IMG/VR virus record: IMGVR_UViG_3300049218_000295
Coordinates: 32,001 to 96,000 of that record
DNA length: 64,000 nucleotides
Reading direction: 5' to 3' (one strand)
From: a virus
Positions 8,779 through 31,665 of the stretch are shown piece after piece (position 1 is the stretch's first letter; each line of letters begins with the position of its first letter). Below the pieces are notes generated by a model, which made no database searches, had not been told where the DNA came from, and was given only the letters and a program-made list of their open reading frames with translations. Position numbers and translations under genes: made by a program.

Positions 8779-9027
8779 ATGAGCAGTGTCAAATTACGTG
8801 CCAGTTATGATAGTGCGCCGCTGCATGGACGCATAAGCGTCTCCCAAGCATCTAGCACTTTCCCGACCCAATACACCCTCAAACTTCTGCACGAAGTTAA
8901 CGGACTCATCACCCCGCGCCTTTCCACTTTCCGGACCATGAATGAAGCTATTGCGCACGCGAGTCACTACGGCTTCTTATCGCAAAATTGGGTGGTCCAA
9001 ACTCTACAGATTCCGGACCAGGTGTAA
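8779..9027 (+). CDS. hypothetical protein
   Basis: 82-aa ORF with TTAATTT 6 nt upstream; leads into the fibre genes. Confidence 0.6.
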
Positions 9028-9029
9028 CG

Positions 9030-10730: not shown

Positions 10731-10734
10731 TTAG

Positions 10735-13700
10735 ATGGGCAAGATTCAAGACAAAGATATTAAATCCGCAGCAGACCTTGCCCTCGAAGGTTTTCCAATA
10801 TCCGACCTCCCCAACGATGATAAGATCTACATCGCTTCACTAGGAAAGACTCTCGCCAACGCCATCACCAGCAACGACCTCCTCGGCCCAACCGGTCCTC
10901 AGGGTACTACAGGTGTTGCCGGAGCAACCGGTCTTGTGGGTAGTCAAGGGACAACAGGCATTCAGGGCGTTACGGGCGTAGCGGGCACCGCAGGCTCACA
11001 AGGTAGTACGGGACTTCGGGGAACCACAGGAGTTGCGGGAAACCAAGGCTCCACAGGCGTTGCCGGAGCAACTGGGGTTCAGGGCAACCAAGGCGTTACG
11101 GGTGTAGCGGGCGTTAATGGTGTAACTGGTGTTGCAGGTGTTAACGGGGCTACTGGTGCCCAAGGAACGACCGGACTGACTGGTACTCAGGGTGCGACTG
11201 GCGTAGCGGGTGTTAACGGTGTAACTGGTGTTGCTGGAATTAACGGGGCTACCGGTGTCCAAGGGACCCAGGGCGCGACGGGTATTGCGGGTGTTAACGG
11301 AGTTACTGGAATCGCAGGCGCGACAGGCGTACAGGGTGTTACCGGAATCCGGGGCTATACCGGCATCGAAGGCACCACTGGCGTTGCGGGAAATCAAGGT
11401 TTAACCGGAACCCAGGGTCTACAGGGTTTAACCGGAGTCTCCGGTTCTAACGGAGTCACTGGGGTGCAAGGCGCAACAGGCGTCGCGGGTGCAACCGGGC
11501 GCGACGGCCCAACAGGTTTTCAGGGAGTCACAGGCGTTCAGGGCTCGACCGGCGTTGCCGGAGCCACGGGATACCAGGGCGTAACAGGAATCCAAGGCCA
11601 AACAGGCGTTGCCGGTATGACCGGCGTTCAAGGTATCACTGGTCTTTTTTCGTCAGCAGGCTATACAACCCAAACTCCAACGGTTCAGAAGTTTCTCACT
11701 GCAACTTCGGGAACGTACACGACGCCATCCAACGTCGCCTATATTATCGTTGAAATGGTCGGTGGCGGTGGTGGGGGCGCACCAGGGGGGACTCAATCTG
11801 TAGCTGCAACTTCGGGGGGAACTACAACTTTTGGCACTTCGTTTTTAAGTGCTACTGGTGGTGGCGGTGGTGGTCAGCCTCCTGGAGGTTCGGGAGGAAC
11901 AGTTTCTATTGGCTCTGGGGCCATTATTCTTGCTCAACTAACCGGAGGCCAAGGTTCTGCTGGCTCTTCGGTGGCGTTTTCTGCAGGCGGCGGCGGAGCG
12001 GCCTCTCCTTTTGGCGGTGCGGGTGGTGGCGGTCAAAACAGTGGTGGTGGCTATTACGGGATTGCGAATACTGGTTCAGGTGCGGGTGGTGGTGGAGCAA
12101 CAGCCACAAATCCTTCCGGCGGTGGTGGTGGGGCTGGTGGATATTTAAAAGTTTTAGTGCCAACTCCAGCGACTTATTATTCATACGCTATTGGTGGCGG
12201 CGGCGCATCTGGCACTGGATCGACCTCTGGCGGAGCTGGTGGTTCGGGCGTAATCATTGTTACCGAGTATTACAACCAGACTGTCGCGTCGGGCATCACG
12301 GTTACAGCTTCGACTCCTCCAACTAAGACTATTTACCTGACTGCTGGCGCGACGGGCACTTACACAACTCCTAAGGGCGTACAGTATATCTCTGTTCGGA
12401 TGGTGGGCGGTGGTGGTGGCGGTGCGGGGTCATCAACAGTAGCTGCAAATGGCGGCAGCGGCGGAACAGGTGGAACTTCATCTTTTGGTACAAACCTTCT
12501 AACTGCAAACGGTGGTTCAGGTGGTGGCGGTGGAGGAGCAGGTGGTGGACCTGGCGGCAGCGCATCTTTGGGGACTGGACCCATTGGGATTGGCGTAACT
12601 GGTGGTAACGGCGACAGTGCGTCAACATCAATCAGTGGTTTTTCTCCTGAAAGCGGCGAGGGTGGATCATCCGCTTTGGGTGGTGGCGGTTCAGGCGGTG
12701 CAATCAATTTTGGGGTCGGGGGCTCAGGAAATCCCAATACCGGCGGTGGAGGCGGTGGAGCTGGAGGCGGAAACATTTCAGGCGGCTCTATCGCAGGAAG
12801 TGGAGGTGGCGCAGGTGGGTACATTGAAGCAATTATTTCAAACCCAAGCGCTACATATTCTTACACAGTAGGCGCAGCGGGCACTGCTGGCGCAGCGGGA
12901 ACCAGCGGTAGTGCTGGTGGAATTGGTGGCACCGGACTCATCGAAGTGACTGAGTACTATACGGCTTATGCGACCGGCGGCTTCTCTGCTGGCGGTGCAA
13001 ACGTCCCCACAGTTCAGAAATTCTTAACTGCTACTTCTGGGACCTACACGACACCATCCAACGTCATCTACATTGAGGTGGAGCTGGTGGGCGGTGGTGG
13101 CGGTGGCTCTGGCTCCGGCACAACTGCTGGAGCAGGCGGCACGGGCGGAAATGGTTCTGCTTCTACTTTTGGTACAAGCCTGTTATCTGCAGGCGGCGGA
13201 ACGGGCGGAACTTGGGCGGGCGCGGGTGGCGCAGGGTCTACATCGACAACAATAAACACCCCCGCTATACAAGTAACCGCCGTAGGCGGAGGATCGGGCA
13301 GCGGAGCCGGAAACTCAAGTTCCGTAGCCCAATCAACAACTCCCGGCGCAGGCGGAAGTTCTTTTTTTGGCGGCAACGGCGGCGGCGGCGACCAAGCAAC
13401 GGGTGTCGGACATAGCGCGGCCTCTAACTCTGGTTCAGGCGGCGGCGGCGCTTTAGGCGCTAACCAAGCAAGTGACTACCCTGGATCGGGTGGCGGCGCT
13501 GGTGCCTACGTGAAAGCCGTCATCACCAACCCTTTGTCGTCTTATTCATGGACGGTTGGTTCAGGCGGTGCGGCTGGGACTGCGGGCTCGGCAGGATATG
13601 CAGGCGGCGCGGGTGGCTCTGGTGCGATCATCGTCACTGAATACTATGCAAATGGAACCGTGGGCACAGCAACTAATGTTACTGGGGTTGTAGCTCAAAT

Positions 13701-14172
13701 AAACGGCGGAACTGGGACCACATCACAAGCCGGTGGCATACTAACAGGAACAATAACTACCCAATCGACCGCCGTCACGGCAACAAGTTATACAACCTTC
13801 AGCAACAGTCCTGGGTTCTCGTTCACACCTGTTGTTAGTGGTACATACAAAATTCGTTGCAACGCCACCGTGGATTGCTACAACTCAAGTTCTAGTGGTC
13901 CTACTGGCGTTGTTAGAGTGTACAACACAAGCGGTGGTGCAAGTTTGCTGGCGGAGTCTGCAGGCTGCATTGCAAATACCGGTTTCAGCGGAGCGTCGGC
14001 CTCTCAGCCGACAATACCTATTGAAAGCTGGTACACCCTTACTGCAGGCGTGGCCTACGTATTCGATGTCCAAGGCAAGGCGGTAACAGACATCTATGGA
14101 GGTAGCGGAACACAATTATATCTAAGTGGAGGCGACGCGCCACTCCATATGTTCGCAGAGCGCATCTTATAG
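10735..14172 (+). CDS. collagen-like fibre with three glycine-rich tail-fibre modules
   Basis: GVT/GAT collagen repeat, then three modules of TSGTYTTP..V.YI.V.MVGGGGGG...G.IIVTEYY. Confidence 0.85.
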   Translation: MGKIQDKDIKSAADLALEGFPISDLPNDDKIYIASLGKTLANAITSNDLLGPTGPQGTTGVAGATGLVGSQGTTGIQGVTGVAGTAGSQGSTGLRGTTGVAGNQGSTGVAGATGVQGNQGVTGVAGVNGVTGVAGVNGATGAQGTTGLTGTQGATGVAGVNGVTGVAGINGATGVQGTQGATGIAGVNGVTGIAGATGVQGVTGIRGYTGIEGTTGVAGNQGLTGTQGLQGLTGVSGSNGVTGVQGATGVAGATGRDGPTGFQGVTGVQGSTGVAGATGYQGVTGIQGQTGVAGMTGVQGITGLFSSAGYTTQTPTVQKFLTATSGTYTTPSNVAYIIVEMVGGGGGGAPGGTQSVAATSGGTTTFGTSFLSATGGGGGGQPPGGSGGTVSIGSGAIILAQLTGGQGSAGSSVAFSAGGGGAASPFGGAGGGGQNSGGGYYGIANTGSGAGGGGATATNPSGGGGGAGGYLKVLVPTPATYYSYAIGGGGASGTGSTSGGAGGSGVIIVTEYYNQTVASGITVTASTPPTKTIYLTAGATGTYTTPKGVQYISVRMVGGGGGGAGSSTVAANGGSGGTGGTSSFGTNLLTANGGSGGGGGGAGGGPGGSASLGTGPIGIGVTGGNGDSASTSISGFSPESGEGGSSALGGGGSGGAINFGVGGSGNPNTGGGGGGAGGGNISGGSIAGSGGGAGGYIEAIISNPSATYSYTVGAAGTAGAAGTSGSAGGIGGTGLIEVTEYYTAYATGGFSAGGANVPTVQKFLTATSGTYTTPSNVIYIEVELVGGGGGGSGSGTTAGAGGTGGNGSASTFGTSLLSAGGGTGGTWAGAGGAGSTSTTINTPAIQVTAVGGGSGSGAGNSSSVAQSTTPGAGGSSFFGGNGGGGDQATGVGHSAASNSGSGGGGALGANQASDYPGSGGGAGAYVKAVITNPLSSYSWTVGSGGAAGTAGSAGYAGGAGGSGAIIVTEYYANGTVGTATNVTGVVAQINGGTGTTSQAGGILTGTITTQSTAVTATSYTTFSNSPGFSFTPVVSGTYKIRCNATVDCYNSSSSGPTGVVRVYNTSGGASLLAESAGCIANTGFSGASASQPTIPIESWYTLTAGVAYVFDVQGKAVTDIYGGSGTQLYLSGGDAPLHMFAERIL

Positions 14173-14179
14173 GGCTAGT

Positions 14180-16528
14180 TTAAAGCCACTTTGACCAATG
14201 GTCGTCCCAGACGGACTGCCAATCGATACGTTCAGTACCTGCTAACGCTTGGTCACTGCGGAGCTTGTAGTAGTCTTTATCTACGTGAAGTCGAATAATT
14301 TCTTCCATTAAGGCGATTCGGCCTTCTTTAGTGTAGGGGTGCTCTTTTATGATTTTGCCATAAGGGCCTACCGTCGTTGTTAGGGCACCAACATTGGAGC
14401 AGACGATTGGGGTTGCCGAAAGTTGAGCCTCTTTCGCTGTGATACAGTAAGTTTCGGTGAACAGAGTTGGATAGGCCCAAACATAAGCTTTCTTCCACTC
14501 CTTAGCAAGTTCCGGCTGAGAAACCCTATCATGGAAAACCACTGAATCCCCAGCACCCTCAATCAACTTTTCCATTTCGTTGATTCTGCCTAACTCGTCT
14601 GGGTTATTTCGATGCTTTGCAGCCGAAATCCAGTTGAACATTCCATAGTAAACGTGAAGCTTGATTTCAGGAACATGCTGCTTAAGGAATGGTAAGCAAT
14701 ATAAAAGATTGTCCAATCCTCTGTCTGGCGACGAAGAATAATGAAGCCTGCCGTATTCCTTGACACTTAAATCCATTCTCTCGAAAAGTTCCACGTTGAT
14801 ACCATTTGGTATGATAACAATTTTGCTCTCAGGGAGATTGGGATAGTAACTAAGAAGAAATTGCTTGTGCCACTCGGATAAGGCAATGAAACCGTCCACC
14901 TTCTTCAACAGAAAATCGGAGAACATGTTGTTGGGCTGAACATGACTTAGGGCAAAGATATCATGAATCCAAACTAGGACCTTTTTTGCTCTAAGTTTCT
15001 CTGTAATTGGAGACAGGTTTCTTGAAGCTACAAATAAGTCATAGTACTCTTGGTCCGGTTGAAACTGGTTGAAAGGCCGAAGCATTACGCCGTTTTGTTC
15101 TTGCTCGGCATGCTGACCATACATCGTGACTTGATGACCGTTGGCCACAGCGATTTCGGCCAAACGGCCCGCGCAAGTTTCACTCCCACCGATGCCGGTG
15201 GTCTTGTAAGTATTGAGGTCCCAGGTCTCCCAGGCCGGGCCGGTCCAAATCGCGACCCGCTTGACCCGCTTCTGGTTCCGAATCCACTTCTTTTGTAGAA
15301 GAGAATTATTATGCTGATCTTCGACCAGGTGCAAATTGGGGTCTTGGTCCTGCGCGAACTTGCGTGTTCTTCCTCCGAAATGGAAAATGAACGCTGAACG
15401 CGTCCAGAAAGTTTGGACTCCGAGGGATTGGGCGCGATAGGAATAGTCCGCGTCCTCGCCACCATTACTGAAATCCTCAGCCAAGAAGCCAATTTTTTCA
15501 AAAACAGACTTCGGCATCATGGTGCCGTACATCGCACAAAAGGGAACTTGGATAAGAGTACGGTCCGAACTTGGAGTGTACTCACGCAGCAACGTGAGTT
15601 CGCCTGGTGAAAATTGCTCAAGTGCCATTCCGGGGTGCAGTGGATGTGCACCTACTGCTAATGAGTCACGGTGCAACCAACCTTGGTCACAGTTCGAGTA
15701 AGGATTGAGGATAATTTCGTTGTCACCAACGAGTTGAACCATATTGCTTAAGGCATGTTTCGAGACAATCGTATCATCGTTCAACAGCAAAATGTGGGTG
15801 GTTGAAGCGTGGAGCATTTTCAGACCAACATTATTGGCTGCGGAGAAGGAGAGACGATGCGGGCTGTGGTGGATGCGAAGGTTTGGGTGTCTTTCGGTCA
15901 ATTCTCGAACCGCGTGACTGTGGCGAAGGTCAGTATGGGCGCTCGAAACGATTAAAACATTCCGGGACGGGCCTTCGGCAAGTAAAGCTGATTCCGCCGC
16001 ATGAACCACATAATCTACTCGTTCAGAATAATGGGGAATAATGATTTGCAGGAAGTGCTCATCAACCTGAACTGCTGAGATGAAGTGGTTTACCAAGTCC
16101 CGAGGATGCAAATATTTGTTGACAACATCTCGGCCCTCTTTGCCCAGTCTTTGACGAAGCTGAGGGTCATTTTTGAGGGCGAGAGCATGTTCTAGCCAAT
16201 CCGACCGGTCCGAAACTACCAAAGCGTTCTCACCATGACGAGCATATTTGAGATATGCAGGTAACGGGGCCACAATACAAGCCTTGCCTCGACTCCAAGC
16301 TTGACCGAGGCGGTTGACACTCTTGGACGGCTGCATCTCCACTCGTGCTGGGAGAATAATGGCGTCCATACTATCGATGAAAGGTATGAGGCCGTTTACA
16401 CTAAATTTCACGTCGGCATTTGGATGCTCATGGCAAGTGAAGAGCTTGATACCATTCAGCTCGAACTCGTCACGAAATTGGTCCGCCTGCCAAGCGTTAC
16501 CACCATAACCAAACCACCCGCAGCGCAT
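14180..16528 (-). CDS. multidomain glycosyltransferase (GT-B C-half + GT2 + GT4-like)
   Basis: N-terminal GWFG...KSVNRL...LRQRLG; GT2 IIIPHY...LLLNDD...GEDADY; GT4-like IGGSE...YSSSPDRGL...ETYCITAKEA. Confidence 0.88.
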   Translation of the reverse strand: MRCGWFGYGGNAWQADQFRDEFELNGIKLFTCHEHPNADVKFSVNGLIPFIDSMDAIILPARVEMQPSKSVNRLGQAWSRGKACIVAPLPAYLKYARHGENALVVSDRSDWLEHALALKNDPQLRQRLGKEGRDVVNKYLHPRDLVNHFISAVQVDEHFLQIIIPHYSERVDYVVHAAESALLAEGPSRNVLIVSSAHTDLRHSHAVRELTERHPNLRIHHSPHRLSFSAANNVGLKMLHASTTHILLLNDDTIVSKHALSNMVQLVGDNEIILNPYSNCDQGWLHRDSLAVGAHPLHPGMALEQFSPGELTLLREYTPSSDRTLIQVPFCAMYGTMMPKSVFEKIGFLAEDFSNGGEDADYSYRAQSLGVQTFWTRSAFIFHFGGRTRKFAQDQDPNLHLVEDQHNNSLLQKKWIRNQKRVKRVAIWTGPAWETWDLNTYKTTGIGGSETCAGRLAEIAVANGHQVTMYGQHAEQEQNGVMLRPFNQFQPDQEYYDLFVASRNLSPITEKLRAKKVLVWIHDIFALSHVQPNNMFSDFLLKKVDGFIALSEWHKQFLLSYYPNLPESKIVIIPNGINVELFERMDLSVKEYGRLHYSSSPDRGLDNLLYCLPFLKQHVPEIKLHVYYGMFNWISAAKHRNNPDELGRINEMEKLIEGAGDSVVFHDRVSQPELAKEWKKAYVWAYPTLFTETYCITAKEAQLSATPIVCSNVGALTTTVGPYGKIIKEHPYTKEGRIALMEEIIRLHVDKDYYKLRSDQALAGTERIDWQSVWDDHWSKWL

Positions 16529-16662
16529 TATTTAGTCCCCCATGGAGCTTTGCCATGCTCTCTTATGTATGCTTCTCTATAGGCTAATTTTGCTTGTTCT
16601 GAAGTATCAAAATATCCTAAATGGTCTACTTGACGGAACAAGTAATTCAGAATCTCTTTCAT
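16528..16662 (-). CDS. 44-aa AP2-domain remnant (HNH-AP2 endonuclease fragment)
   Basis: Manual translation MKEILNYLFRQVDHLGYFDTSEQAKLAYREAYIREHGKAPWGTK matches the AP2 tail LGxFxTxEEAxxAY..A...HG. ATGA and TAATG overlaps couple it to both neighbours. Confidence 0.65.
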   Translation of the reverse strand: MKEILNYLFRQVDHLGYFDTSEQAKLAYREAYIREHGKAPWGTK

Positions 16663-18533
16663 AGCCATTCCTCAGCAGTAAATTCAAAGTGGTCTTCGAG
16701 CACCACAGTCCGCTTTTGTGGATAAAGCTTCTGAAGGTGACTTTGTAAGGATTCGGTGCAAACTGTAATAACATCCGCGTACTGAACTCCTTTGTGCTCG
16801 TAGTATTCCCGAGGAAGCTCCTCACAAAGGTCCAGAATTTTCACTTTACCACGGTCGGTCCGACTCAGATAGGGACTAAAGTAGTAGTCCGTCTGGTCTG
16901 GGTCTTCTCCAACTTGAACCACATTGCCGACCACGACCCTGAAGCCTGCCTTAATGGCCGAAAGTTCTAGGTTTCGCTGACGAATACGGTAAGGGCCAAA
17001 AGTGGCATCACCTTCTGCGATTCGAATTTGGGGCTTGGTAGGGTAGGGCTTAACAAAATTGTTAACTTCCTGTCCGTTGTATTTTGCAGGTCCCAAGTAT
17101 TGAATTCCATGAACTATCAAGTCTTCGGCTTTGTTGCTGACTACCCAGACAAAACCACCTGGCTTTACAAAGTTTACCAGCGCTTTGGGATTACCACTAA
17201 CCACTATACCATCAAGGCTCTCAGGATCTAAATTGATGGTGGAGGCGTCATCGACTCTAGTGGAGTCATTGCGCAGCTTCGTGCCACATTCAAGGACTTT
17301 GAGACCACCTTTAGGCTCCACTTTGACTTTAGGGCGTAAACTCTCGAACCAACGGAGGGTGTCGGAGTCCGTAGGGAGTAAGTCTATGACCTTCTGACCC
17401 CATTCGACTGCTTTCTTGATGTCCCCCATTGCCTGATAGCACTCGGCAATCCGACGAGAGGGGTTCCAAGTGTAATATTCCAGACTCAAAACCCGTGGTG
17501 GCGGTGGTGGGGTATCAATGCAGCGTTGGTACCATTTAATTGCGACTTCGAAGTTGTGCAGGTCCTGTTCAACCTTACCCCAGAGCCAATAAGCCTCGGC
17601 CCGTTTGCGAGTAGAGTCAAGATGATAAATCTCCTCTGCCATTCGGACCGCCTCGCGGTGGCGTCCACGAACTTCGTAAGCCTTGCCTAGACGGAAACGA
17701 GCATTGACTTCATCATCATACCAGCGTCCGGGCAAAGTGAGATAGCGTTCGAGGACTTCGATGCCCCTGTCATCAACCATATCGAATAACTCTTTGCCAT
17801 AATAATAGCAAATGCGGGGGTCATTGGGATTCTTGTCGAATTCTTTGGCCAAAATCGTGACATTTCGTCGCGGGTCGATGACTTTACCACTTCGATTGTG
17901 GATCACCTTGAGGTCTTTGTAGTCTCGCTGGCGCATACAGGCGATGTCCACGGTCTCATGCACAGAGCCAATCCAGCGCGGCCCTGTAGAGCGCCTAATA
18001 AAGCGCTCTCGGCCTAACGTCGTTTGAGGGCTGCCATCGGAGAAGCGACTGTAGATGTAATCGAGAAGCCAAGCATCGACGTTGGGGTTATCGAGGAAAT
18101 TGTCCTTAAATTTACGGAGTTCAGCCGGATCAATTTGGTCGTCGCCGTCCAACCAAAAATAGAACGCAGTACCTGGTTTTGCTAATGAAAATGAAAAGTT
18201 CCTGGCTTCTGAAAAATTGTCGACCCACTTAAAATGGTCAATTCTAAGGTTGCTATACTCTTTTTGCAGGCCTTGAAGCACGCTTAAAGTGCCATCAGTG
18301 GACCCAGTGTCCACAACCACAACGTCCTCTATGATAGGACAGACCTGGTGCATGAGAGTTTTTATATTCGCAGCCTCATTTCTGACTATCATGCATAAAG
18401 AAACTGTGTTACCACCGTTTGCAGCATTACCTATAACCACGTTGTTGCTGCCAGAAACGCTTCTGCCGTTCCCAATAACCACATTGTTGTTTCCGGAGAC
18501 AGTCGAATCCCCAATAACCACATTGTTATTCAT
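16659..18533 (-). CDS. GT2 glycosyltransferase with TPR repeats and C-terminal GT-B N-half
   Basis: SLCMIVRNEA, DTGSTDGT, FSEARN, WLDGDD, VHE, then TPR helices; C-terminal LDLCE...ADVITVCTESL...LEDHFE. Confidence 0.9.
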   Translation of the reverse strand: MNNNVVIGDSTVSGNNNVVIGNGRSVSGSNNVVIGNAANGGNTVSLCMIVRNEAANIKTLMHQVCPIIEDVVVVDTGSTDGTLSVLQGLQKEYSNLRIDHFKWVDNFSEARNFSFSLAKPGTAFYFWLDGDDQIDPAELRKFKDNFLDNPNVDAWLLDYIYSRFSDGSPQTTLGRERFIRRSTGPRWIGSVHETVDIACMRQRDYKDLKVIHNRSGKVIDPRRNVTILAKEFDKNPNDPRICYYYGKELFDMVDDRGIEVLERYLTLPGRWYDDEVNARFRLGKAYEVRGRHREAVRMAEEIYHLDSTRKRAEAYWLWGKVEQDLHNFEVAIKWYQRCIDTPPPPPRVLSLEYYTWNPSRRIAECYQAMGDIKKAVEWGQKVIDLLPTDSDTLRWFESLRPKVKVEPKGGLKVLECGTKLRNDSTRVDDASTINLDPESLDGIVVSGNPKALVNFVKPGGFVWVVSNKAEDLIVHGIQYLGPAKYNGQEVNNFVKPYPTKPQIRIAEGDATFGPYRIRQRNLELSAIKAGFRVVVGNVVQVGEDPDQTDYYFSPYLSRTDRGKVKILDLCEELPREYYEHKGVQYADVITVCTESLQSHLQKLYPQKRTVVLEDHFEFTAEEWL

Positions 18534-19429: not shown

Positions 19430-20155
19430 TCAAACTGTGGGTGGCGCGACGACCTCGGTCACCGTAAATGGGCACTTGCTCCGTTCGTGCTCGAGCAAAC
19501 AGGCCCGGATATTCTTGAACCAAGAACGGGTGTTGTTGTCGTAATAGTAGCCGCGAGTCTTAGCCTCATCCTTGGTGTTGAAGTCTACTCCGGCGTGGAC
19601 TTTAATCATCGGATGACGAGCAAGTTCGATTGCAGCTTTAATATCGTAATGCGAGGCAATGTAGATGGTAGCCATCGAATCAAAAAGACCACGGTGGGCA
19701 AAGTCCAAGGTGTACCGGTGGTCTGCCGCCAAATACTTTAAAGCTCGCATTTTCATCTGCTCGGGATAGGCAAAATCCACCTGGGTGTCCACCCAGGGAA
19801 TTTGAGGCAATTCTCCGACAAGCGCCGTGTACTTTTGCTCAATCATAGCCTTATCGAGCGCAATTCCACCGTGGACGATGACAGCTACCGAGTGCCGAAG
19901 AAGCAGGCCGAGCCGCCCCAAGGCTTGGCCAAGGGGCACTCCAAAGGTTTCAAGCATCTTATCGTCGATACCTGTAAGTTCCGTGATTTCGGGTTTGAGC
20001 GGTGGACAGTTGGGGTCCTGATCATAAATAAGTTCACTTAGGAATGTCACCGGCTTGCGCGTCTCGACATTCCAAAGCACCGCTCCGACTTCGGTAATGC
20101 GGTCCGTGTTCGGGTCAAGGCCCGAAGTTTCTAGGTCCAGCGCTGTAACAAACAT
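19430..20155 (-). CDS. DEDDh 3'-5' exonuclease, DNA Pol III epsilon-like
   Basis: LDLETSG, ELTGI, WVDT, HRGLFDS, plus a short C-terminal KDEAKTRGYYYD...W domain. Confidence 0.88.
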   Translation of the reverse strand: MFVTALDLETSGLDPNTDRITEVGAVLWNVETRKPVTFLSELIYDQDPNCPPLKPEITELTGIDDKMLETFGVPLGQALGRLGLLLRHSVAVIVHGGIALDKAMIEQKYTALVGELPQIPWVDTQVDFAYPEQMKMRALKYLAADHRYTLDFAHRGLFDSMATIYIASHYDIKAAIELARHPMIKVHAGVDFNTKDEAKTRGYYYDNNTRSWFKNIRACLLEHERSKCPFTVTEVVAPPTV

Positions 20156-20397: not shown

Positions 20398-21528
20398 TTA
20401 TTCGAGCCAAATATAATCTTCGTGGTCCGGGCCAGAGCCAATCATCGCAACGGGCAGTTCGGTAACTTCTTGCATCTTGTCCACATATTGACGCACACTC
20501 TTGTGCAAGTTGCGGTATTCTTTAATGCCACCACGAACCTTATAGGAAGACCAATCAATGTACTGTGGAAAGTTAAGAACGAGCTTGGTGGCCCCGCAGA
20601 AATCCGCAGAATCTTTAAGTAATTTCCAGGATGGGGTAAAGACTCGGCGAATCTTTTTGGTCACAGTGGTGCGCTCGCGCTCGGCCAGAATTGCAATTTC
20701 ACTCTCTGGCATACCAGCCTCACGTCCAACTTGCTCCCAGGTCAGCTCTTTTTGGTCGTCAAGAACATCACCCGAGTAACCAATTTGTTTGCCGTCGGCG
20801 TCAAAATTGGAACCCACCCGGATTGGGAAACTACGGACATTGAGATAGACGTCTCCTACCATTTCAGGTAGGATGCCGAAGTCAGCATACGCCTGTTGAG
20901 GCGTGCAATCGCGGAAAGTGCAATGCGGATAGTGTGTTCCGTAGTTGACAGAGAGAGCAAAACCTTGGGAAACTTCGTGCAGAAAAGTATGCATACTTGC
21001 AAACTCGGCGCGGACCGCTCGCATGAACGCCATTGGCTTGATAGCCCGTTCTGGGTTAACTCTGCCCCAGGTTTTGAGTTCTTGTCCACGCATAGCTTTA
21101 TCCGTAAAGGCGGCCCCACTGCCCGACATCGTGGAAGAAATATGTAGAGTAGATTGCGAACCGGTTGGTGACTCGGCCTCGATGTGGCGGTCCTCGACTA
21201 CAATGGCGCGTTCATGAATTTCGAGATCTTCAACTCTATAGCCTGTTTCTTCCAGCTCCTTATGAAGCTGCTTCATCTGGAAACCAGAATTTGGACCTAC
21301 CCAAAGTGTTGGGCGTTTGCCCACCAGTTTGGGTAAGATGGCTCCCGTTGGGAGCGCTTTGGCTACAAATTTCACTTCGCCCTTGAGAGCGGTGTGTCCG
21401 GCGTTCGGGAAATTGCCCGATGAGAGATTAGGGATATCAAAAATGTCTGCCAGACGACAGGACACGGCTCCCTTGGCCGAGCTTCCCCAGGCTGAATCAA
21501 CAATAGTGTTAAACTTTCCTTTTTGCAT
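20398..21528 (-). CDS. purZ: PurZ-like N6-succino-2-amino-2'-deoxyadenylate synthase (adenylosuccinate synthetase family)
   Basis: P-loop WGSSAKG has Ser at the PurA Asp13 site. Also PNAGHT, EVSQGFALS, FPIRVG, TTVTKKIRRVF, and LNFPQY replacing the GTP-specifying TKLD. Confidence 0.78.
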   Translation of the reverse strand: MQKGKFNTIVDSAWGSSAKGAVSCRLADIFDIPNLSSGNFPNAGHTALKGEVKFVAKALPTGAILPKLVGKRPTLWVGPNSGFQMKQLHKELEETGYRVEDLEIHERAIVVEDRHIEAESPTGSQSTLHISSTMSGSGAAFTDKAMRGQELKTWGRVNPERAIKPMAFMRAVRAEFASMHTFLHEVSQGFALSVNYGTHYPHCTFRDCTPQQAYADFGILPEMVGDVYLNVRSFPIRVGSNFDADGKQIGYSGDVLDDQKELTWEQVGREAGMPESEIAILAERERTTVTKKIRRVFTPSWKLLKDSADFCGATKLVLNFPQYIDWSSYKVRGGIKEYRNLHKSVRQYVDKMQEVTELPVAMIGSGPDHEDYIWLE

Positions 21529-21982
21529 TTTGGCTCCTAGGTCCTTTTTTAGGGTGTTGTGACTTTGCGCGAATAAGTTCTTCTTCCAAGGCGCGAAAAG
21601 AGTAGGATTCGAAACTGCGTGATATTGGAAGCTTTTTCTCTCCTACAGTACCGCCCGCTAGAGACGCATCCCAAGCTCGACGTAAGTCGCCAAGCGTGAA
21701 AAGCGTCGGCTCATGGTCTGGCGAATTTTCTGCCGGGGTTCTACCATGATTAAATGCGTCCATCATCTGCTCTTTTAGTTTCCTGGAATACCTCTTGTGG
21801 AGTTCTGGAAATCTTTTGCGGACACGCATAATAAGTTCATGCACCCGCTCTTCGGTGGAAGTCGCGGGCGGAACAAACCCATCAGTAAGACTGTCCATTT
21901 CGTCAAGGAGCATCCACATCCAGCGGATTAGAATATGCTCGCGGTCGGTCTTGGCGGCAAATTCACTTTTCCGTAACTTCAA
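21509..21982 (-). CDS. hypothetical protein
   Basis: In-operon ORF overlapping both neighbours. Confidence 0.6.
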   Translation of the reverse strand: MKLRKSEFAAKTDREHILIRWMWMLLDEMDSLTDGFVPPATSTEERVHELIMRVRKRFPELHKRYSRKLKEQMMDAFNHGRTPAENSPDHEPTLFTLGDLRRAWDASLAGGTVGEKKLPISRSFESYSFRALEEELIRAKSQHPKKGPRSQNAKRKV

Positions 21983-22427
21983 TCTTCACCCCCGTGGGCA
22001 CGATTCCTGTCTTTTGGATTTTCAGAGTCAAAACGCCGCGCCGAAGTGTTGCCAGACACATTTTGGCATCAATCTGTTGTGGTAGCTCGTAGTCGTGCTT
22101 TTCCTTGGTTGCAGCCTTAGATACTGCGATCCGAACTTTATTTGCAAACACACGGACTTCGAGGTCTGTTGGAGCAATCCCAGGAACTGGGATTTCCAGC
22201 ACATAATGCTCAGTCTCAGTTTTCAGCGTCCCGGTCCAATTCTTGCTGGACTTGTCTCCGGTATTCCAATTGATAGTGGAAGTTGACGACTTAAAAATTG
22301 GGTCGAACCCCTCAAAAATTTGCGCCGCGCCTTCAGCCAATTCTTCGGTGCCTTTGGCCAAATCTTCTCCCATTTTGCGGAAATCCTCGCCCATTTTGCG
22401 GAAATCCTTAAACATGTCCTTCATCAA
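21963..22427 (-). CDS. small heat-shock protein (Hsp20/alpha-crystallin)
   Basis: ETEHYVLEIPVPGI...LEVRV...LPQQID...ATLRRGVLTLKIQK. Confidence 0.85.
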   Translation of the reverse strand: MMKDMFKDFRKMGEDFRKMGEDLAKGTEELAEGAAQIFEGFDPIFKSSTSTINWNTGDKSSKNWTGTLKTETEHYVLEIPVPGIAPTDLEVRVFANKVRIAVSKAATKEKHDYELPQQIDAKMCLATLRRGVLTLKIQKTGIVPTGVKIEVTEK

Positions 22428-22773
22428 GTGGTCCCTTCATACTTAGTGCATAAAGCACTGTCTTACAAACTTTTCTATTGCCTTCGTCAATCCATTGGGT
22501 ATCACCATGCTGCTGGACCGCCGAAGTGCCGACCGAATAAATCGCGAACTGTTCTCTGCCAATCAGGATATCCTTATTCTTGGGTTCATTGGGACCCAGA
22601 GCAGCTAAGGATTCACGTAGTTCTGCTTCTTTGCTGGTAAATTCGACTTCGGTTCCCACCGAACGAATCCACCGACTGAACCACTTTTGAGCCTCTTCAG
22701 GCTCTGCAATTTCGCACAATTCTTTAATGCACTGTTGCAGGATTTGTTCGGGCGTTTTCCGTTCACTAGACAT
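22408..22773 (-). CDS. hypothetical protein
   Basis: 121-aa ORF between nrdA and hsp20. Confidence 0.6.
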   Translation of the reverse strand: MSSERKTPEQILQQCIKELCEIAEPEEAQKWFSRWIRSVGTEVEFTSKEAELRESLAALGPNEPKNKDILIGREQFAIYSVGTSAVQQHGDTQWIDEGNRKVCKTVLYALSMKGPLDEGHV

Positions 22774-22795
22774 CCCAGTTTTTATAATAATTGGG

Positions 22796-24490
22796 TCATC
22801 CGTGGCAGGCAGCGCATTCTTCCTTTGAACGGGAAGCCAAGTCGCCCTTCAAAACCCCTTCAGTACGGAGATAGTAGAGCGTTTTCAAACCGGCCTCCCA
22901 GGCTGCAATATGAACCTCGTGAATGTACTTGGCGCTAGAATTGCTAGCGAAAAAGAGGTTCAAGCTCTGAGCTTGGTCGATGTGTTTCTGACGCTGAGCC
23001 GCTTGCTTTACCAAGGCATGCTGATTGATTTCGCGAGCGGTCAGAAATACCTCGCGTTCCTGGTCCGTAAGAAAAGCCAAATGCTGCACTGAACCCGATT
23101 GCGCATTAATGGTTTTCCAGACTTCGGTCGTGTTCTTGCCGTAGGCTTCAAGAACTTCAAGTAGTTTGGGGTTCTTACGGATGAAAGTACCTTTGGCCGA
23201 CTTCTGAGAGAAAACGTTGGCCGGGAGCGGCTCAATTCCTGCACTGTGACCACCGGAAATGGTGGAATTGGATACAGTCGGAGCCACAGCAAGCAAGTGT
23301 GTATTGCGACGACCAAAGCCCTTACACCACTCGGGTTCGCCCATCTCTTTTGCCAATTCTGCTGTTGCCTTTTCAGCTTTGTCGCGCATCGTTTTGAAAA
23401 CAAGATTGTTGAGCATCATGGCATCAAAGGAGTCAAAAGGCATCATATTGTTTTGGAGAAGAGTGTGCCAGCCGAGAACACCAATTCCAATGGCCCGACC
23501 CTTGACCGCAGAGCGCAGGCTGTTTTCAAGGCCCGGTTTGCCTTTAGCTTTCAAGATGTACTCGTCAAGAACAGCATCGAGAAAACGAACTGCGGTCTCG
23601 ACCAAGTCTGTATCTCTCCATTCGTTCCAACGAACAAGGTTGAGCGAGGAAAGACAACAAACGAATGAATGCTGGCCGTCCGTATAAAGAGTGATTTCGG
23701 TGCAAATATTGCTGGTGCGGACGCGGAGGTCGTGTTTGGCATAGCAGTCAGGGTTGGCTCGGTTCACATTGTCCGAGAAAAAGAGATAGGGCTCCCCAGT
23801 AGTCACCCTAGCGTCAAGAACATCTAACCAAATTTTCCTTTTGCTAGAATCTCCATCCAACATCTCCTTCATCCATTTATCGCTAATGCACACTCCGTGG
23901 TTGGTATTCAAACAGCGCCGATTCATGTCGCCCGTCGGGCGGCGAATGTTAATGAATTCGTCAATATCTAGATGGTCAATATCTAAATAGAGTGCCGAGG
24001 CCGCGCCTCGAGTTTTTCCTTGTTTCACCGAGTGGGTAGTGGAATCGTAAACTTTTGCCCAGGGAATCACGCCTTCGGACTCGCCATTACCCGCAACTTG
24101 CTTACCGCGACCACGAATATCACCTAGATAGACACCAACGCCCGCGCCATTCTTAGAAAGCATAGCGAGTTCGTGATTCTTCTGAAAGATGCTGTCAATA
24201 CTATCCTCAACGTGAATCGAATTGCAGGAAATGGGCAAGCCGCGAGAGGTTCCCATGTTGGAAAGGATGGGCGAGGCCGGACACAGCCAATTTTTCCACA
24301 TGGCATCGAAGTACTTCTTTTCCCAAACTTTCGGTTCTTTGGAATAACTCGCAGCAGCTTTAGCCACGCGTTTGTACATGCCACGGGGAGTCTCGCCATC
24401 AAGTAGGTAGCCACCCTGTAAGGTCGCTAGTCCTGGTTCGTCAAGCCACACGGGGGCCTCATTGGCCTGCTTCAATTCATCAAGTATCAT
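22796..24490 (-). CDS. nrdA: class I ribonucleotide reductase alpha subunit (short, no ATP cone)
   Basis: PASPIL, LPISC, SNICTEI, CCLSSLN, VAPT, LKTLYY, and C-terminal CAACHG. Confidence 0.95.
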   Translation of the reverse strand: MILDELKQANEAPVWLDEPGLATLQGGYLLDGETPRGMYKRVAKAAASYSKEPKVWEKKYFDAMWKNWLCPASPILSNMGTSRGLPISCNSIHVEDSIDSIFQKNHELAMLSKNGAGVGVYLGDIRGRGKQVAGNGESEGVIPWAKVYDSTTHSVKQGKTRGAASALYLDIDHLDIDEFINIRRPTGDMNRRCLNTNHGVCISDKWMKEMLDGDSSKRKIWLDVLDARVTTGEPYLFFSDNVNRANPDCYAKHDLRVRTSNICTEITLYTDGQHSFVCCLSSLNLVRWNEWRDTDLVETAVRFLDAVLDEYILKAKGKPGLENSLRSAVKGRAIGIGVLGWHTLLQNNMMPFDSFDAMMLNNLVFKTMRDKAEKATAELAKEMGEPEWCKGFGRRNTHLLAVAPTVSNSTISGGHSAGIEPLPANVFSQKSAKGTFIRKNPKLLEVLEAYGKNTTEVWKTINAQSGSVQHLAFLTDQEREVFLTAREINQHALVKQAAQRQKHIDQAQSLNLFFASNSSAKYIHEVHIAAWEAGLKTLYYLRTEGVLKGDLASRSKEECAACHG

Positions 24491-24505
24491 GCTGAGATTT
24501 GCTCC

Positions 24506-25468
24506 CTACGCATTAAAAACCTCCAGCCAATTTTTGGTTCCTTTGGCATAATCACTGACGCGGCTCGCGAAAAAATCACTGTGCGAGACGCCGCCCGAGA
24601 GCACATCAAACCAGTCCATGTTAAGGAGTAACGCCTTATCAATATTGGTCCACTTCGATTTCAGACCCAGGTCGTGCAGCTTCGTGTTGCAGCGGAAGCG
24701 GATGAAAGCCTTGAGGTCCTTAACCGACAGTCCTTCCACCGGGCCGAGTTCGAATGCTTTGTCGATGAAAGCGTCTTCGAGGGCGATAGTGAGCTTGGCA
24801 GCGTCGTAAATTTCACCTTTTAGCTCGTCGGTCCACACTTCTGGATATTCCGCGATAAACTGCTTAAATAACCGACAACCTGCTTCCGAGTGGAGCGATT
24901 CGTCCTTGATACTGAACGCGATGATTTGCCCCAGGCTCTTCATTTTGTTAAAGCGCGAAAAGTTGAGTAAGACTGCAAAGGAAGAGAAGAGGTTCACGCC
25001 TTCATTGAAGGCGGAGAAGATGGCGATAGAGCGAGCGATTTCTTGTTTCGTTTTGCCTTTGGTTTCGATTAGCCTATCGATTTTGGCTTTGGCCGTCGGC
25101 TCGTGAAGGAACGCCGAAAAGTCCTCGAGACCGAGCGATTGATTGAGGTAGGCATAAGAAACTGCGTGTACGGACTCCATAGAGCCAAATGCCGCCGCCA
25201 TCATCTGAATTTCAGGCTTTTTGAACCATTTGGCCACCATCTGGGTCCAGTACTCTTGGATGAAGATTTCAGACTGCGTGAAACCCTTCAGGATGTTGCC
25301 AATAACGGAACGCTCAGCATCGGTGAGCTTGGTCTTCCAATCATTGATGTCATCCGACATCGCGATTTCAGTATGAAGCCAGTGCGACTGCTGCTGCTGC
25401 TCCCAGTAAGTGTAGGCCCAATCGTACTCAAAAGGGCTATAGGTAGCTCTAGGAGTTAATAACGGCAT
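24506..25468 (-). CDS. nrdB: class I ribonucleotide reductase beta subunit
   Basis: HWLHTEI, ESVHAVSY, EGVNLFSSF, DESLH, DFFASRVSDY. Confidence 0.95.
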   Translation of the reverse strand: MPLLTPRATYSPFEYDWAYTYWEQQQQSHWLHTEIAMSDDINDWKTKLTDAERSVIGNILKGFTQSEIFIQEYWTQMVAKWFKKPEIQMMAAAFGSMESVHAVSYAYLNQSLGLEDFSAFLHEPTAKAKIDRLIETKGKTKQEIARSIAIFSAFNEGVNLFSSFAVLLNFSRFNKMKSLGQIIAFSIKDESLHSEAGCRLFKQFIAEYPEVWTDELKGEIYDAAKLTIALEDAFIDKAFELGPVEGLSVKDLKAFIRFRCNTKLHDLGLKSKWTNIDKALLLNMDWFDVLSGGVSHSDFFASRVSDYAKGTKNWLEVFNA

Positions 25469-28790: not shown

Positions 28791-30448
28791 GCGACGATTT
28801 TGAAGATTTCCATGATAGCGAGGAGAAAGCAACCAGAAAGGTGCCGAAAACCTTTCCGGCACCGGACTATGCGGATTTGGCTCAGTACAACCCCTTTCCT
28901 GGAATCCGACCCGGACAGGAGCAGATTCTAAAGCAACTCGAACAGTTTTTGCAAGATCCGAAAATTAAGACTATCATTCTTGAAGCGCCAACGGGTGTCG
29001 GGAAGTCGATGTTTGCGATGGCTGCCGCTCGTGCCTCCAAGGGTGCTTACGTCACTACTGCCAACAAACTTCTGCAAGACCAATATCAGCGCGATTTTGC
29101 ATCTTTTCTTACTGACTTAAAAGGTCGGGCTAATTACGAGTGCCGTCGCTATAAGCAACCCAATGGTTTCCCCTACAATTGTGGCAATTCCCCTTGCCGC
29201 AAGACCCTGACGGAACAAAAAGAATGCTCCAAACGCAAAGAGTGTGAGTATCATGAGGCGCTGCAAGCGGCAGGCAACTCATCTCTCACGGCCTTCAATT
29301 TTGCAGCCTATCTCGCTTTTCTCGACCATGTCAAGACGCTATTCGGCAAACGCAATATGCTCATTGCTGATGAAGGCCACTCCCTCGCCAATTGGCTAAC
29401 CAATTTTGTGGAAGTGCGTTTCTCGCGCAATAGCCTTCTCAGTCTTGGTCTCGCTCCGGACCTACCTGATTTTGAGTCGGTAGATTTCTATCAGAACTTT
29501 ATTGAGCAGGTGCACGCTGAAATCAATCGGCAGCTCGGCTCGGACGACGAACGCGAAAACATGGACCCCAATTTTCTCTATGACTTGGAGACCATGAGCC
29601 ACAAAATTTTTGTCTTTAAGAAATTGCTTGAGGCACCCGATGGCTCAAACAACTTCGTACTCTATAAGGAGTACGACAAGAAGATGACCCATCTTCTAAG
29701 CTCGGTGGCTTTCAAACCGGTGGTCGTGAACAAGATTGCCAATGACTACATGTTTCGGTACGCGGACAAGACCCTCATTCTCTCTGCAACCATTCTGGAT
29801 TTCACTACTTTCTGTAGCATGATGGGCTTGGAACACGAGGAAACAGCCATTATTCGCGTAGGGTCACCTTTTCCCAAAGAAAATCGCCCCTTTTATCTCG
29901 GAATGGCGGGGCCAGCGCTCAACATGTCCAATTTGGACCAAAACATGCCGCAGCTCGTCCAAAAAATTGAGCAGATTATGGACCACTATCCAAATTACAA
30001 AGGCATCATCCACGGCAACTCCTACAAGATTTGTAACTACATTGCAGAGAACATTAAGTCCAAATATGTCCAGCGGCTCATTTATCCGCGAGCCTCTAAG
30101 GAACAGAAGGACATGCTAAAAATGCATGCCAATTCCACACAACCGACAGTCCTCCTTTCACCTTCGATGGAAGAAGGTGTAGATTTAAAGGATGATTTGG
30201 CGCGTTTCTCTATTCTCTGTAAAGTCCCTTATCCGTACTTGGGCGACCCTATCATGCGACGACGCATGGACGTTTATCCGGGCTACTATGAATGGGAGAC
30301 TGCTCTAACTATTGTCCAGGCCTATGGGCGCGGCGTTCGTCACGAGGCGGATTGGTGCCATACCTATGGACTCGATGGTGGTTTTGTGAACTTCATAGGA
30401 CGTGCTAAACACATACTACCCTCATGGTTCTTGGAGGCAGTCCAGTAA
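28787..30448 (+). CDS. DinG/XPD-family Fe-S helicase
   Basis: EAPTGVGKS, KGRANYEC plus a Cys cluster, DEGH, LSAT, EGVD, KVPYP, QAYGRGVRH. Confidence 0.9.
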   Translation: MSDDFEDFHDSEEKATRKVPKTFPAPDYADLAQYNPFPGIRPGQEQILKQLEQFLQDPKIKTIILEAPTGVGKSMFAMAAARASKGAYVTTANKLLQDQYQRDFASFLTDLKGRANYECRRYKQPNGFPYNCGNSPCRKTLTEQKECSKRKECEYHEALQAAGNSSLTAFNFAAYLAFLDHVKTLFGKRNMLIADEGHSLANWLTNFVEVRFSRNSLLSLGLAPDLPDFESVDFYQNFIEQVHAEINRQLGSDDERENMDPNFLYDLETMSHKIFVFKKLLEAPDGSNNFVLYKEYDKKMTHLLSSVAFKPVVVNKIANDYMFRYADKTLILSATILDFTTFCSMMGLEHEETAIIRVGSPFPKENRPFYLGMAGPALNMSNLDQNMPQLVQKIEQIMDHYPNYKGIIHGNSYKICNYIAENIKSKYVQRLIYPRASKEQKDMLKMHANSTQPTVLLSPSMEEGVDLKDDLARFSILCKVPYPYLGDPIMRRRMDVYPGYYEWETALTIVQAYGRGVRHEADWCHTYGLDGGFVNFIGRAKHILPSWFLEAVQ

Positions 30449-30458
30449 AAGGAAGCTT

Positions 30459-31010
30459 ATGATAGTTTATTTAGGAGCAGCAATCGACACTTCGCTGGGT
30501 TCGCCCGCAGACCAGTTCAACATGTTGAGCGAATTAGTGTTGAAGGCAAATAAGGGTTCTGTCATTTTCTTCAATCCGCTCACGGCGTTTATCAACGCTC
30601 ACGCGATTACTCGTGAACAGGACATGCAATTCCTTATTGATATCAATAACACCGCGCTGGACCGTGCCGACCTCGCAGTTTTCTCCTGGACCTCGTCGCC
30701 CTCCATGGGCGTTCCGCTGGAAATTCAGCGTTGCAAGGAACAGAAGAAACCAATGGTAATTTGGAATCGCACTCCCAAGAAACTGGGGATTTATTTGCGC
30801 AGTGGAATGGGACGTAACCAAATCATTGTAGAAAGTGAAGAGGACGTAGTAGCCGCCATTCGGGCTTGGCCTGGCCATCCAGAGAGCCTGATGGAGTTAC
30901 CACCAAAGCCAGAACCACATCTAACTCTACCTCTTCCTCCTCCAACACTTAATCAAGAACATAAGAAAACTTTTATGCGGGAGTATCCGCCAAAGATCAA
31001 TGACCAATAA
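30459..31010 (+). CDS. nucleoside 2-deoxyribosyltransferase / nucleotide N-glycosidase family protein
   Basis: IVYLGAAID, FFNP, ALDRADL, SMGVPLEI, KKPMV. Likely start is ATG 30459. Confidence 0.7.
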   Translation: MIVYLGAAIDTSLGSPADQFNMLSELVLKANKGSVIFFNPLTAFINAHAITREQDMQFLIDINNTALDRADLAVFSWTSSPSMGVPLEIQRCKEQKKPMVIWNRTPKKLGIYLRSGMGRNQIIVESEEDVVAAIRAWPGHPESLMELPPKPEPHLTLPLPPPTLNQEHKKTFMREYPPKINDQ

Positions 31011-31665
31011 TTGGACCCTTCTTGACCAGAAGGAATCGTTGTACTATTATTGGCTTGGCTGGATGGTCACAGATGGTTGTATCATGCATCGATTCCGAGA
31101 AGGCAGAAATCGAGGCATAATAGTTGCGCTGACCATGCACCGGAACGACGAACACATTTTAGACTTCTTCAGAGATCAGATTCGACCGGACGCTAAATAC
31201 GCAATTAATGGCAATTGCAGCATGCTCAGTCTGGCATTGCCTAGGCGCTACGCGAATGAATTAGCAAAATTTGGGTTAGTACAGCGTAAGACAATAAATC
31301 TGAAAGTCACCAACACTCTCAAATCTATGCCAAAAGAAGCATTCCTTCAGTATTTAGTGGGGATTATTGAAGGCGATGGCTGTGTTGATATAAGGATGCT
31401 GAAGAGCAAGGGCTATGAATATAGTGTGCCGCGCATAAGGGTGACAAACAACAGCAAGCCTTTTCTTGAATGGATTGCTAGGAAATGTGAGTATTATTGC
31501 GGTGTGAAACGAAGAAAGCCTTATAAAAGACAGGGTTGCGAGTGCTGGGAATTGGGCATCGCCGGTAAAGACGCAATAGAGCTGCATAAGCAGCTCAGTT
31601 CTTGCCAATACCGTTTGCTGGAGAGAAAATGGAAGTTAATAGAACCTTTAGACCAACATCAATAG
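31000..31665 (+). CDS. free-standing LAGLIDADG homing endonuclease
   Basis: Two motifs, YWLGWMVTDGCI and YLVGIIEGDGCV. Confidence 0.88.
   Translation: MTNNWTLLDQKESLYYYWLGWMVTDGCIMHRFREGRNRGIIVALTMHRNDEHILDFFRDQIRPDAKYAINGNCSMLSLALPRRYANELAKFGLVQRKTINLKVTNTLKSMPKEAFLQYLVGIIEGDGCVDIRMLKSKGYEYSVPRIRVTNNSKPFLEWIARKCEYYCGVKRRKPYKRQGCECWELGIAGKDAIELHKQLSSCQYRLLERKWKLIEPLDQHQ

Follow-up and report, generated by a model that had tools for sequence, protein, structure and literature searches.

PurZ is the enzyme that allows some phages to swap adenine for 2-aminoadenine (Z) in their DNA. Two such enzymes, DgsS of phage phiVC8 (PDB 6FM1/6FKO/6TNH) and S-2L PurZ (PDB 7ODX), are ATP/dATP-dependent succino-amino-deoxyadenylate synthases. 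In the open literature searched, Z-genomes come from small sipho- and podoviruses only, and the known Z-phages combine either a purZ-mazZ-datZ cluster or, in actinophages, DutZ and DmtZ, with replication by DpoZ or PrimPol (PMC8599892, PMC12884076). The actinophage systems of Wayne and Ghobes consist of PurZ0, DutZ, DmtZ and DUF5664 (PMC12884076), and a 2026 NCBI-wide survey recognized seven Z-phage groups, each of which uses DpoZ-type or similar machinery (PMC12884076). The window analyzed here, 64,000 nucleotides long, spans bases 32001-96000 of one linear 168,948-bp IMG/VR virus contig with a CheckV completeness estimate of 66%. Its minus strand encodes, at window positions 20398-21528, a homologue of the PurZ-type N6-succino-2-amino-2'-deoxyadenylate synthases (P0001), in an intact, ATG-started open reading frame (ORF) of 376 amino acids. 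The intact gene, its conserved specificity residues, its defined place in the phylogeny and the genomic associations of its relatives suggest, with a probability of about 0.7, a working ATP-dependent PurZ that belongs to a divergent subfamily seen so far only in metagenomic large phages.

The protein matches the adenylosuccinate synthetase family of Pfam (PF00709, E 2e-23) and PHROG 1211, ‘2-aminooxy adenylosuccinate synthetase' (E 2.7e-46). Its closest relative of solved structure is phiVC8 PurZ (6FM1, E 2e-30), and the others are P. horikoshii PurA (2e-24), S-2L PurZ (7ODX, 1.6e-23) and PurZ0 (1e-13). All the motifs by which an earlier note on this DNA had recognized a PurZ are indeed present in alignments with phiVC8 and with the family: WGSSAKG (residues 14-20) puts Ser16 at the position of the catalytic Asp13 of PurA, NFPQY (residues 319-323, the NFxQ of that note) occupies the position of the PurA TKLD, and TTVTKKIRRV (residues 287-296) and PIRV (residues 235-238) follow the TTVTK..RRV and PIRV patterns. 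Ser16 corresponds to S14 of VC8 and Thr287, in TTVTKK, to T262, both conserved, and N319-F320-P-Q-Y323 aligns with the VC8 NFCNY, in which Phe295 and Tyr298 grip the adenine of ATP (residue roles: bioRxiv 10.1101/2025.10.22.683976, sect. 8). These positions, that is, Ser16, Thr287 and N319-F320-x-x-Y323, are invariant across 40 members of the clade, and of the 267 relatives retrieved, the 223 in which the P-loop can be read all have G-S in it, with none having G-D.

At the NFxxY site, PurA and the PurZ0 proteins of Wayne, Ghobes, Galactica and Zanella show T-x-x-D, with the PurZ0 forms being TMLDQ or SFADQ. The window protein has NFPQY in place of this guanine pocket and is therefore read as the ATP-using type. 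The AlphaFold (AF2) model of the protein has a pLDDT (predicted local distance difference test) of 94.8, and in a Foldseek search, this model scores about as well against archaeal PurA as against PurZ and PurZ0; the fold therefore cannot tell PurA from PurZ.

Phylogenetic trees were built with FastTree (164 rows) and with IQ-TREE in quick mode (LG+C20+F+G4; 72, 73 and 31 rows) and rooted on bacterial PurA, and the support values are those of FastTree and of the SH-aLRT (Shimodaira-Hasegawa-like approximate likelihood ratio test) in the ‘quick' IQ-TREE runs. The Ser-type proteins are separated from bacterial PurA with a support of 100. In all trees, PurZ0 is the first to branch (99) and the remaining Ser-type proteins form one group (95-97), within which canonical PurZ (phiVC8, ZP6, Bm1, S-2L, JeffCo) and the branch from large phages are separate, well-supported clades. 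The window protein lies outside the PurZ0 clade (99), in a subclade of 12 rows (100). It is thus of the Ser type and nearer to canonical PurZ than PurZ0 is, and a topology that unites PurZ and PurZ0 to the exclusion of the large-phage branch is disfavored (approximately unbiased test, p-AU 0.027, for a grouping chosen post hoc). The large-phage clade is accordingly bracketed by two groups with biochemically proven use of dGMP. The placement inside the Ser-type clade, along with Ser16, Thr287 and NFxxY, bears out the assignment of the protein, in the earlier note, to the PurZ type and not to the PurA type.

Among GenBank phages, the nearest matches are ordinary Z-phages, with 28-36% identity. 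In a collection of 5.8 billion proteins, more than 120 clusters are 46-80% identical to the window protein, many of them on contigs of 100-436 kb, and an exhaustive HMMER search yields 161 clusters (clustering at 50% identity) below 1e-30. A query of IMG/VR with the window protein alone gave no match; a query with the alignment gave about 40 such loci, including complete terminal-repeat genomes of 118-436 kb. Judging by these homologues, a large, unclassified branch of putative PurZ is spread among phages with 100-436 kb of DNA, and no description of PurZ in jumbo or DNA polymerase III (Pol III)-type phages was found in the searchable literature. The contig itself is present almost whole in one moss metagenome, probably its source, with smaller shares in peat and moss runs and with no RNA run listed, and a megablast search of GenBank phages with 20 kb of the window gave zero matches. 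As for the designation as a ‘jumbo' myovirus in the earlier note, the size is an estimate, given that the 169-kb contig is about 66% complete; a tail sheath was not recognized in a PHROG scan of six ORFs of the structural region, the sole match being tail-fibre-like.

Some of the PurZ homologues are 750-1200 amino acids long and carry intein-like insertions of 370-410 amino acids (in P0125, split into 121 + 281 amino acids). The insertions are located after query residue 201-202 in P0121, P0124 and P0130, after 45 in P0125 and after 20-27 in P0122 and P0130, where they interrupt the active-site motifs HYP|CT(F/S)R and NAGH|T and the region past the P-loop GKG. Their first residue is Cys, and in some the last is an Asn that precedes a Cys.

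The genomic neighborhoods of purZ in the subclade of the window protein are far from uniform. In the complete 118-kb genome L016, a mazZ-like gene comes after purZ, with a YfbR/HD_3 datZ-like gene next; in L014, a DUF5664 gene (dGTP_diPhyd_N, E 2e-23) is directly downstream of purZ; in L020, the distance from purZ to a Dut-like gene is 0.6 kb; in L012, L013 and L017, NDT (nucleoside 2-deoxyribosyltransferase) genes are found at 1-2.4 kb; and in G001, an NDT gene and an adjoining Dut gene are 10 kb from purZ. Within this subclade, taken over its different phages, purZ is linked to every known type of nucleotide-pool enzyme in the Z pathway. In a neighboring group, a Dut-like gene abuts purZ in L039 and on the Sorangium and Chondromyces chromosomes. 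A 264-amino acid protein without a family match is encoded directly upstream of purZ in 20 loci (e.g. L018:9162-9956).

The myxobacterial PurZ-type genes, L085 on the ~9.767-Mb chromosome of Sorangium sp. So ce131 and L084 of Chondromyces apiculatus, encode proteins with 39-40% identity, and the P-loop of the Sorangium protein is GSSGKA. The PurZ-type gene overlaps by 4 bp a gene for a 253-amino acid protein with a C-terminal dUTPase domain, an ERCC4 nuclease is encoded nearby, and each genome also has a normal purA. The myxobacterial copies probably lie in prophages. A scan of genomic contigs yielded copies of two kinds only, phage-like and myxobacterial.

The relative G001 is a genome of 160.7 kb with terminal repeats. 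The order nrdA-nrdB-purZ is common to window 20398-25468 and G001:147703-152356, in phages that are otherwise unrelated: purZ is 66% identical between the two, the ribonucleotide reductase subunits NrdA and NrdB only 22-28%, and just 10 of 231 proteins are shared, so that G001 was discarded as a guide to the missing third of the contig. The high identity of purZ in spite of so few common proteins implies strong selection on this gene, and the comparison suggests that purZ either was itself exchanged recently or is unusually strongly constrained. By the same sequence comparisons, purZ appears to move as a gene between unrelated genomes.

The neighbors of purZ in the window are those listed in the earlier note: nrdAB, hsp20 and the gene of an epsilon-like exonuclease. 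The large subunit of ribonucleotide reductase, NrdA (window 22796-24490, minus strand; PF02867, E 3e-40, genome 54868-56229), is encoded 1.3 kb upstream of purZ and the small subunit, NrdB (window 24506-25468, minus strand; PF00268, E 8e-66), next to it, so that both genes are 1.3-3 kb from purZ, and Hsp20 (window 21963-22427, minus strand) is encoded in between. The same note found no HD-domain dATPase or MazG-like gene and proposed a search of the rest of the genome for datZ, mazZ and the polymerase type. The first statement is true of the entire contig, and datZ, mazZ and dpoZ are all absent from it; the inventory was nevertheless incomplete in that a DmtZ-like NDT gene, a PurB-like gene and an APRT gene exist.

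The DmtZ-like protein of the NDT superfamily (202 amino acids; window 30402-31010, plus strand; PF05014, E 0.0037) is a candidate dAMP N-glycosidase or deoxyribose-5-phosphate transferase, a prediction from its sequence. It is homologous to the G001 NDT (blastp 4e-11, phmmer 1.5e-11), a protein that scores above the PF05014 cut-off (E 1.6e-11) and whose gene directly adjoins a Dut gene. In an alignment (A2) of the window NDT, the G001 NDT and the proteins of Ghobes, Wayne and Galactica, four residues are invariant, with Tyr6, Asp12, Asn77 and Glu103 of Ghobes DmtZ, the catalytic roles of which have been described (PMC12884076), corresponding to Y23, D29, N82 and E107 of the window protein. Between the NDT-like and clamp-loader genes, there is an ORF (window 31000-31665) that resembles LAGLIDADG-type homing endonucleases.

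Outside the window, the minus strand of the contig encodes a PurB-like lyase (genome 3325-4545; Lyase_1 and ASL_C domains, with adenylosuccinate lyase as the top NCBIfam match) and a bona fide APRT (genome 4686-5225; NF002636, 201 bits against a cut-off of 125). PurB-like genes were found in 10 of 24 large purZ phages compared with none of three small Z-phage controls. Two ORFs beside the PurB and APRT genes were considered as dNMP kinases and rejected, one having no match and the other being weakly polynucleotide-kinase-like. A NUDIX-SprT fusion protein (window 40841-42826, plus strand; NUDIX E 1.7e-9, SprT-like E 5.8e-7, PHROG MutT/NUDIX E 7e-9) could, speculatively, be a candidate for the missing dATP-to-dAMP step.

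With respect to replication, the window encodes, as the earlier note had it, a DnaX/delta'-like clamp-loader subunit (window 31602-32546, plus strand; PF13177, E 2.4e-20, and an AAA domain; PHROG 5846 ‘clamp loader of DNA polymerase', E 9e-51) and a DnaG-type primase (window 5737-6672, minus strand; Zn_ribbon_DnaG E 1e-8, Toprim_2 E 4.5e-8). Downstream of purZ, there is a DEDD (RNase_T/epsilon-like) 3'-5' exonuclease (window 19430-20155, minus strand; PF00929, E 3.6e-10; PHROG 192 ‘DNA polymerase exonuclease subunit', E 1.8e-19), a candidate proofreading subunit, and a beta-clamp-like protein and DnaB are also encoded on the contig. Given this set, a family-C replisome is plausible but incomplete on the contig: of the Pol III-like replisome proposed in the note, the clamp loader, the beta-clamp-like protein and the epsilon-like exonuclease stand, and Pol III alpha is missing from the contig. 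The note was also correct in that the characterized Z-phages are small sipho- or podoviruses and that the setting of the window, a large phage with accessory genes of the family-C type, differs from theirs (PMC8599892).

An ORF considered for Pol III alpha, of 1145 amino acids at window 10735-14172, is collagen-like and was ruled out. It is one of two collagen-repeat genes (580 and 1145 amino acids) in window 8988-14172, a region with 57% G+C compared with 48.7% for the genome, and these genes adjoin large multi-domain glycosyltransferase genes at window 14180-18533. Among other purZ phages, two ORFs make up Pol III alpha in G002:61537-63385, G003:105042-107226, G012, G014 and G021, and the split gene of G003 has an HD_3 gene 2.5 kb upstream. 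In purZ phages of 257-436 kb (G004, G005, G008, G010, G011, G017 and G018), an HD_3 gene is located about 10 kb from the gene of a family A polymerase of 950-1000 amino acids, and in G018, the HD_3 gene also adjoins a MazG gene. Genes of the adenosine deaminase family (PF00962, E 1e-48 to 1e-66) are found at G001:121318-122391, G012:326239-327195 and G014:134670-135623, in three phages that all have Pol III alpha; no gene of this type was found on the contig of the window.

Several observations weigh against a working PurZ or against Z in the DNA of this phage. At the level of the protein, NF038379, the PurZ family of NCBIfam, is the top-scoring family, but the score of 180.3 bits does not reach the cut-off of 300, compared with 397 for VC8, 384 for ZP6, 367 for Wayne, 350 for S-2L, 346 for Ghobes and 320 for Bm1, so that, by this yardstick, the protein would belong to an unclassified sister subfamily rather than to the listed PurZ. 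Trp14, which aligns with Phe12 of VC8 at a position that varies among W, H, F and Y in the clade, is the residue that PurA has. Furthermore, the trees had bacterial and not archaeal PurA as the outgroup, and PurZ0 and PurA meet in them as long branches. At the level of the contig, there are no genes with HD, HD_3, MazG, DUF550, DUF5664 or dUTPase domains in searches with Pfam models of all 168,948 bp, and phmmer searches of the whole contig with real DatZ, MazZ, DutZ and DUF5664 proteins found none either; hence the known dATPase types (DatZ, DutZ, DUF5664) and MazZ/DUF550 are lacking, as is any polymerase of family A, B or C, including Pol III alpha and DpoZ. The context of a Z cluster, with datZ and mazZ or their equivalents by purZ, is seen in L016 and L014 and is missing from the contig. 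The match of the window NDT to PF05014, at 17.8 bits, is below the Pfam cut-off of 28.8, as is that of the characterized Ghobes DmtZ gp53, at 18.3. The PurB-like lyase is very divergent, with 128 bits against a cut-off of 446, and APRT is found in one of 27 genomes checked, that of the window's phage only, which eliminates it as a conserved partner of purZ. Taken alone, the contig supports neither the exclusion of adenine nor the incorporation of Z.

Some of these features would be expected if the enzyme had an auxiliary part in adenylate supply, that is, if a PurA-like activity on IMP or dIMP, together with the PurB-like lyase, APRT and ribonucleotide reductase, raised the (d)AMP level for an A-containing genome. 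The PurB-like and APRT genes are on the same contig, purZ adjoins nrdAB, there is no dATP-removing enzyme, Trp14 is PurA-like and the fold is equally near to P. horikoshii PurA and to PurZ. Such a role is very unlikely, however, because the catalytic Asp13 is replaced by Ser in every member of the clade, the guanine-specifying TKLD is swapped for NFxxY, and the PurA models, with 96 bits against a cut-off of 395 for TIGR00184 and 141 against 368 for NF003295, exclude the protein from the PurA families. Moreover, the location of purZ beside mazZ/datZ, DUF5664, Dut and NDT genes in the subclade would make no sense for adenylate supply, and the DmtZ-like gene points to destruction of dAMP.

The score far below the PurZ cut-off and the absence of the canonical Z cluster from the contig could also mean that the enzyme takes another substrate, for instance, GMP in place of dGMP, or yields another product, such as a succinylated purine that is retained, with a purine modification other than Z or a nucleotide signal as the outcome. 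In the same vein, the earlier note suggested that additional deviations in the sequence (SAKG, STMSGSG, EVSQG and CTFR), all present in the protein, the last three within STMSGSG, HEVSQG and CTFRD, could signify altered substrate use, and Phe205 in CT-F-R and an insertion relative to VC8 at about residues 240-285 are indeed near motifs that contact the substrate. The deviations lend no support to altered substrate use: SSAKG/SSGKG, STMSG and HEVSQG are common to the whole subclade, STMxG is found also in the canonical PurZ of ZP6 and Bm1, and the Phe of CT-F-R, with the same motifs, recurs in L016 and L014, where mazZ-like and datZ-like genes or DUF5664, respectively, come after purZ. The protein appears to retain the residues by which the 2-amino group is held, and the PurB-like lyase on the contig argues for removal of the succinyl group. 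A different substrate or product thus appears unlikely.

The gene content of the contig is what would be expected also if PurZ is active and yields only a minor or transient pool of dZTP, with partial or nil substitution, no dATPase and a replicase that is not Z-selective. DatZ, Dut, DUF5664 and DpoZ are all absent from the contig, and it is DatZ, not the polymerase alone, that accounts for the total lack of A in known Z-genomes (PMC8599892). Conversely, the contig leaves one-third of the genome unseen, it encodes a DmtZ-like protein in which the catalytic residues are conserved, and the 66% identity of purZ in phages that have so little else in common attests to strong selection. On balance, a minor pool is a possibility to be kept in mind, albeit a doubtful one, and a functional PurZ with Z in the DNA of this phage, the latter probable, is preferred.

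The pathway that we infer for a functional PurZ would start with the condensation of dGMP and aspartate to N6-succino-2-amino-2'-deoxyadenylate, from which the phage PurB-like lyase or the host PurB would release dZMP. Kinases would convert dZMP to dZTP, and the phage replicase would place Z opposite T. Adenine would probably be kept low by a route unlike that of DatZ: the DmtZ-like NDT would cleave dAMP to adenine and deoxyribose 5-phosphate and may pass the sugar phosphate on to free Z base, and the phage APRT could return adenine to AMP. No enzymes for the steps from dATP to dAMP or from dGTP to dGMP were identified on the contig, and therefore, the replacement of A may be partial, or the enzyme may be encoded in the missing third of the genome. 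It is tentatively suggested, from the predicted functions of these genes, that the phage combines an ATP-type PurZ and a PurB of its own with a DmtZ-like dAMP glycosidase and APRT in a mosaic pathway to Z-containing DNA, alongside a replisome of the family-C type and with no dATP triphosphohydrolase. If that is the case, adenine would be excluded through the destruction of dAMP, with the base returned to the ribonucleotide pool, which would be a new logic of exclusion and the first use of Z-DNA with a replicase that is neither of family A nor PrimPol.

Should Z really be present in the genomes of these large phages, small phages would not be the only ones with base substitution, the set of helpers would be interchangeable, and a Pol III-type replisome would face the task of copying Z:T pairs. 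On a more practical note, the NCBI model of PurZ misses an entire branch, and the window PurZ, the DmtZ-like NDT and the divergent PurB are concrete proteins to assay.

Compared with the phiVC8 and S-2L enzymes, the window protein has the same compact PurA fold, Ser in place of Asp13, TTVTKK..RR, PIRVG and NFxxY for the base of ATP, and it falls on the same side of the split between PurZ0 and PurZ in the trees. It differs from them in the low identity (31-36%), in forming a separate, well-supported clade, in the NF038379 score (180 compared with 350-397 bits), in its greater length, with extra residues inserted ahead of TTVTKK and a C-terminal segment like that of PurA, and in Trp instead of Phe12. 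The window clade is found on contigs of 100-436 kb, whereas canonical PurZ and PurZ0 come from phage genomes of 35-85 kb, and in contrast to phiVC8 and S-2L, the window phage has neither an adjacent mazZ or datZ nor DpoZ. With the PurZ0 systems of Wayne and Ghobes, it shares a DmtZ-like NDT gene with the same four catalytic residues, its relative G001 has an adjoining NDT+Dut pair as PurZ0 phages do, and Galactica, similarly to the window phage, carries a PurB-like gene. Unlike in those systems, the site for the base is the ATP-type NFxxY rather than T-x-x-D, the protein is outside the PurZ0 clade, and DutZ, DUF5664 and a family A polymerase are absent from the contig. The short archaeal PurA of P. 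horikoshii (PH0438; PDB 2D7U/5K7X) is close in structure (Foldseek E 6e-27, TM (template modeling) score 0.77-0.90) and in sequence (E 2e-24), but the window protein lacks the catalytic Asp and the GTP pocket and falls short on NF003295 (141 compared with 368). There is also a resemblance to the PurZ-type genes of large uncultured IMG/VR phages, which belong to the same broad branch, with 41-48% identity, and in which purZ is likewise detached from its helpers. Most of those phages have a family A polymerase gene, about 10 kb from which lies an HD_3 gene, whereas the subclade of the window protein is associated, in its relatives, with Pol III alpha and NDT genes, a combination to which the window phage adds APRT.

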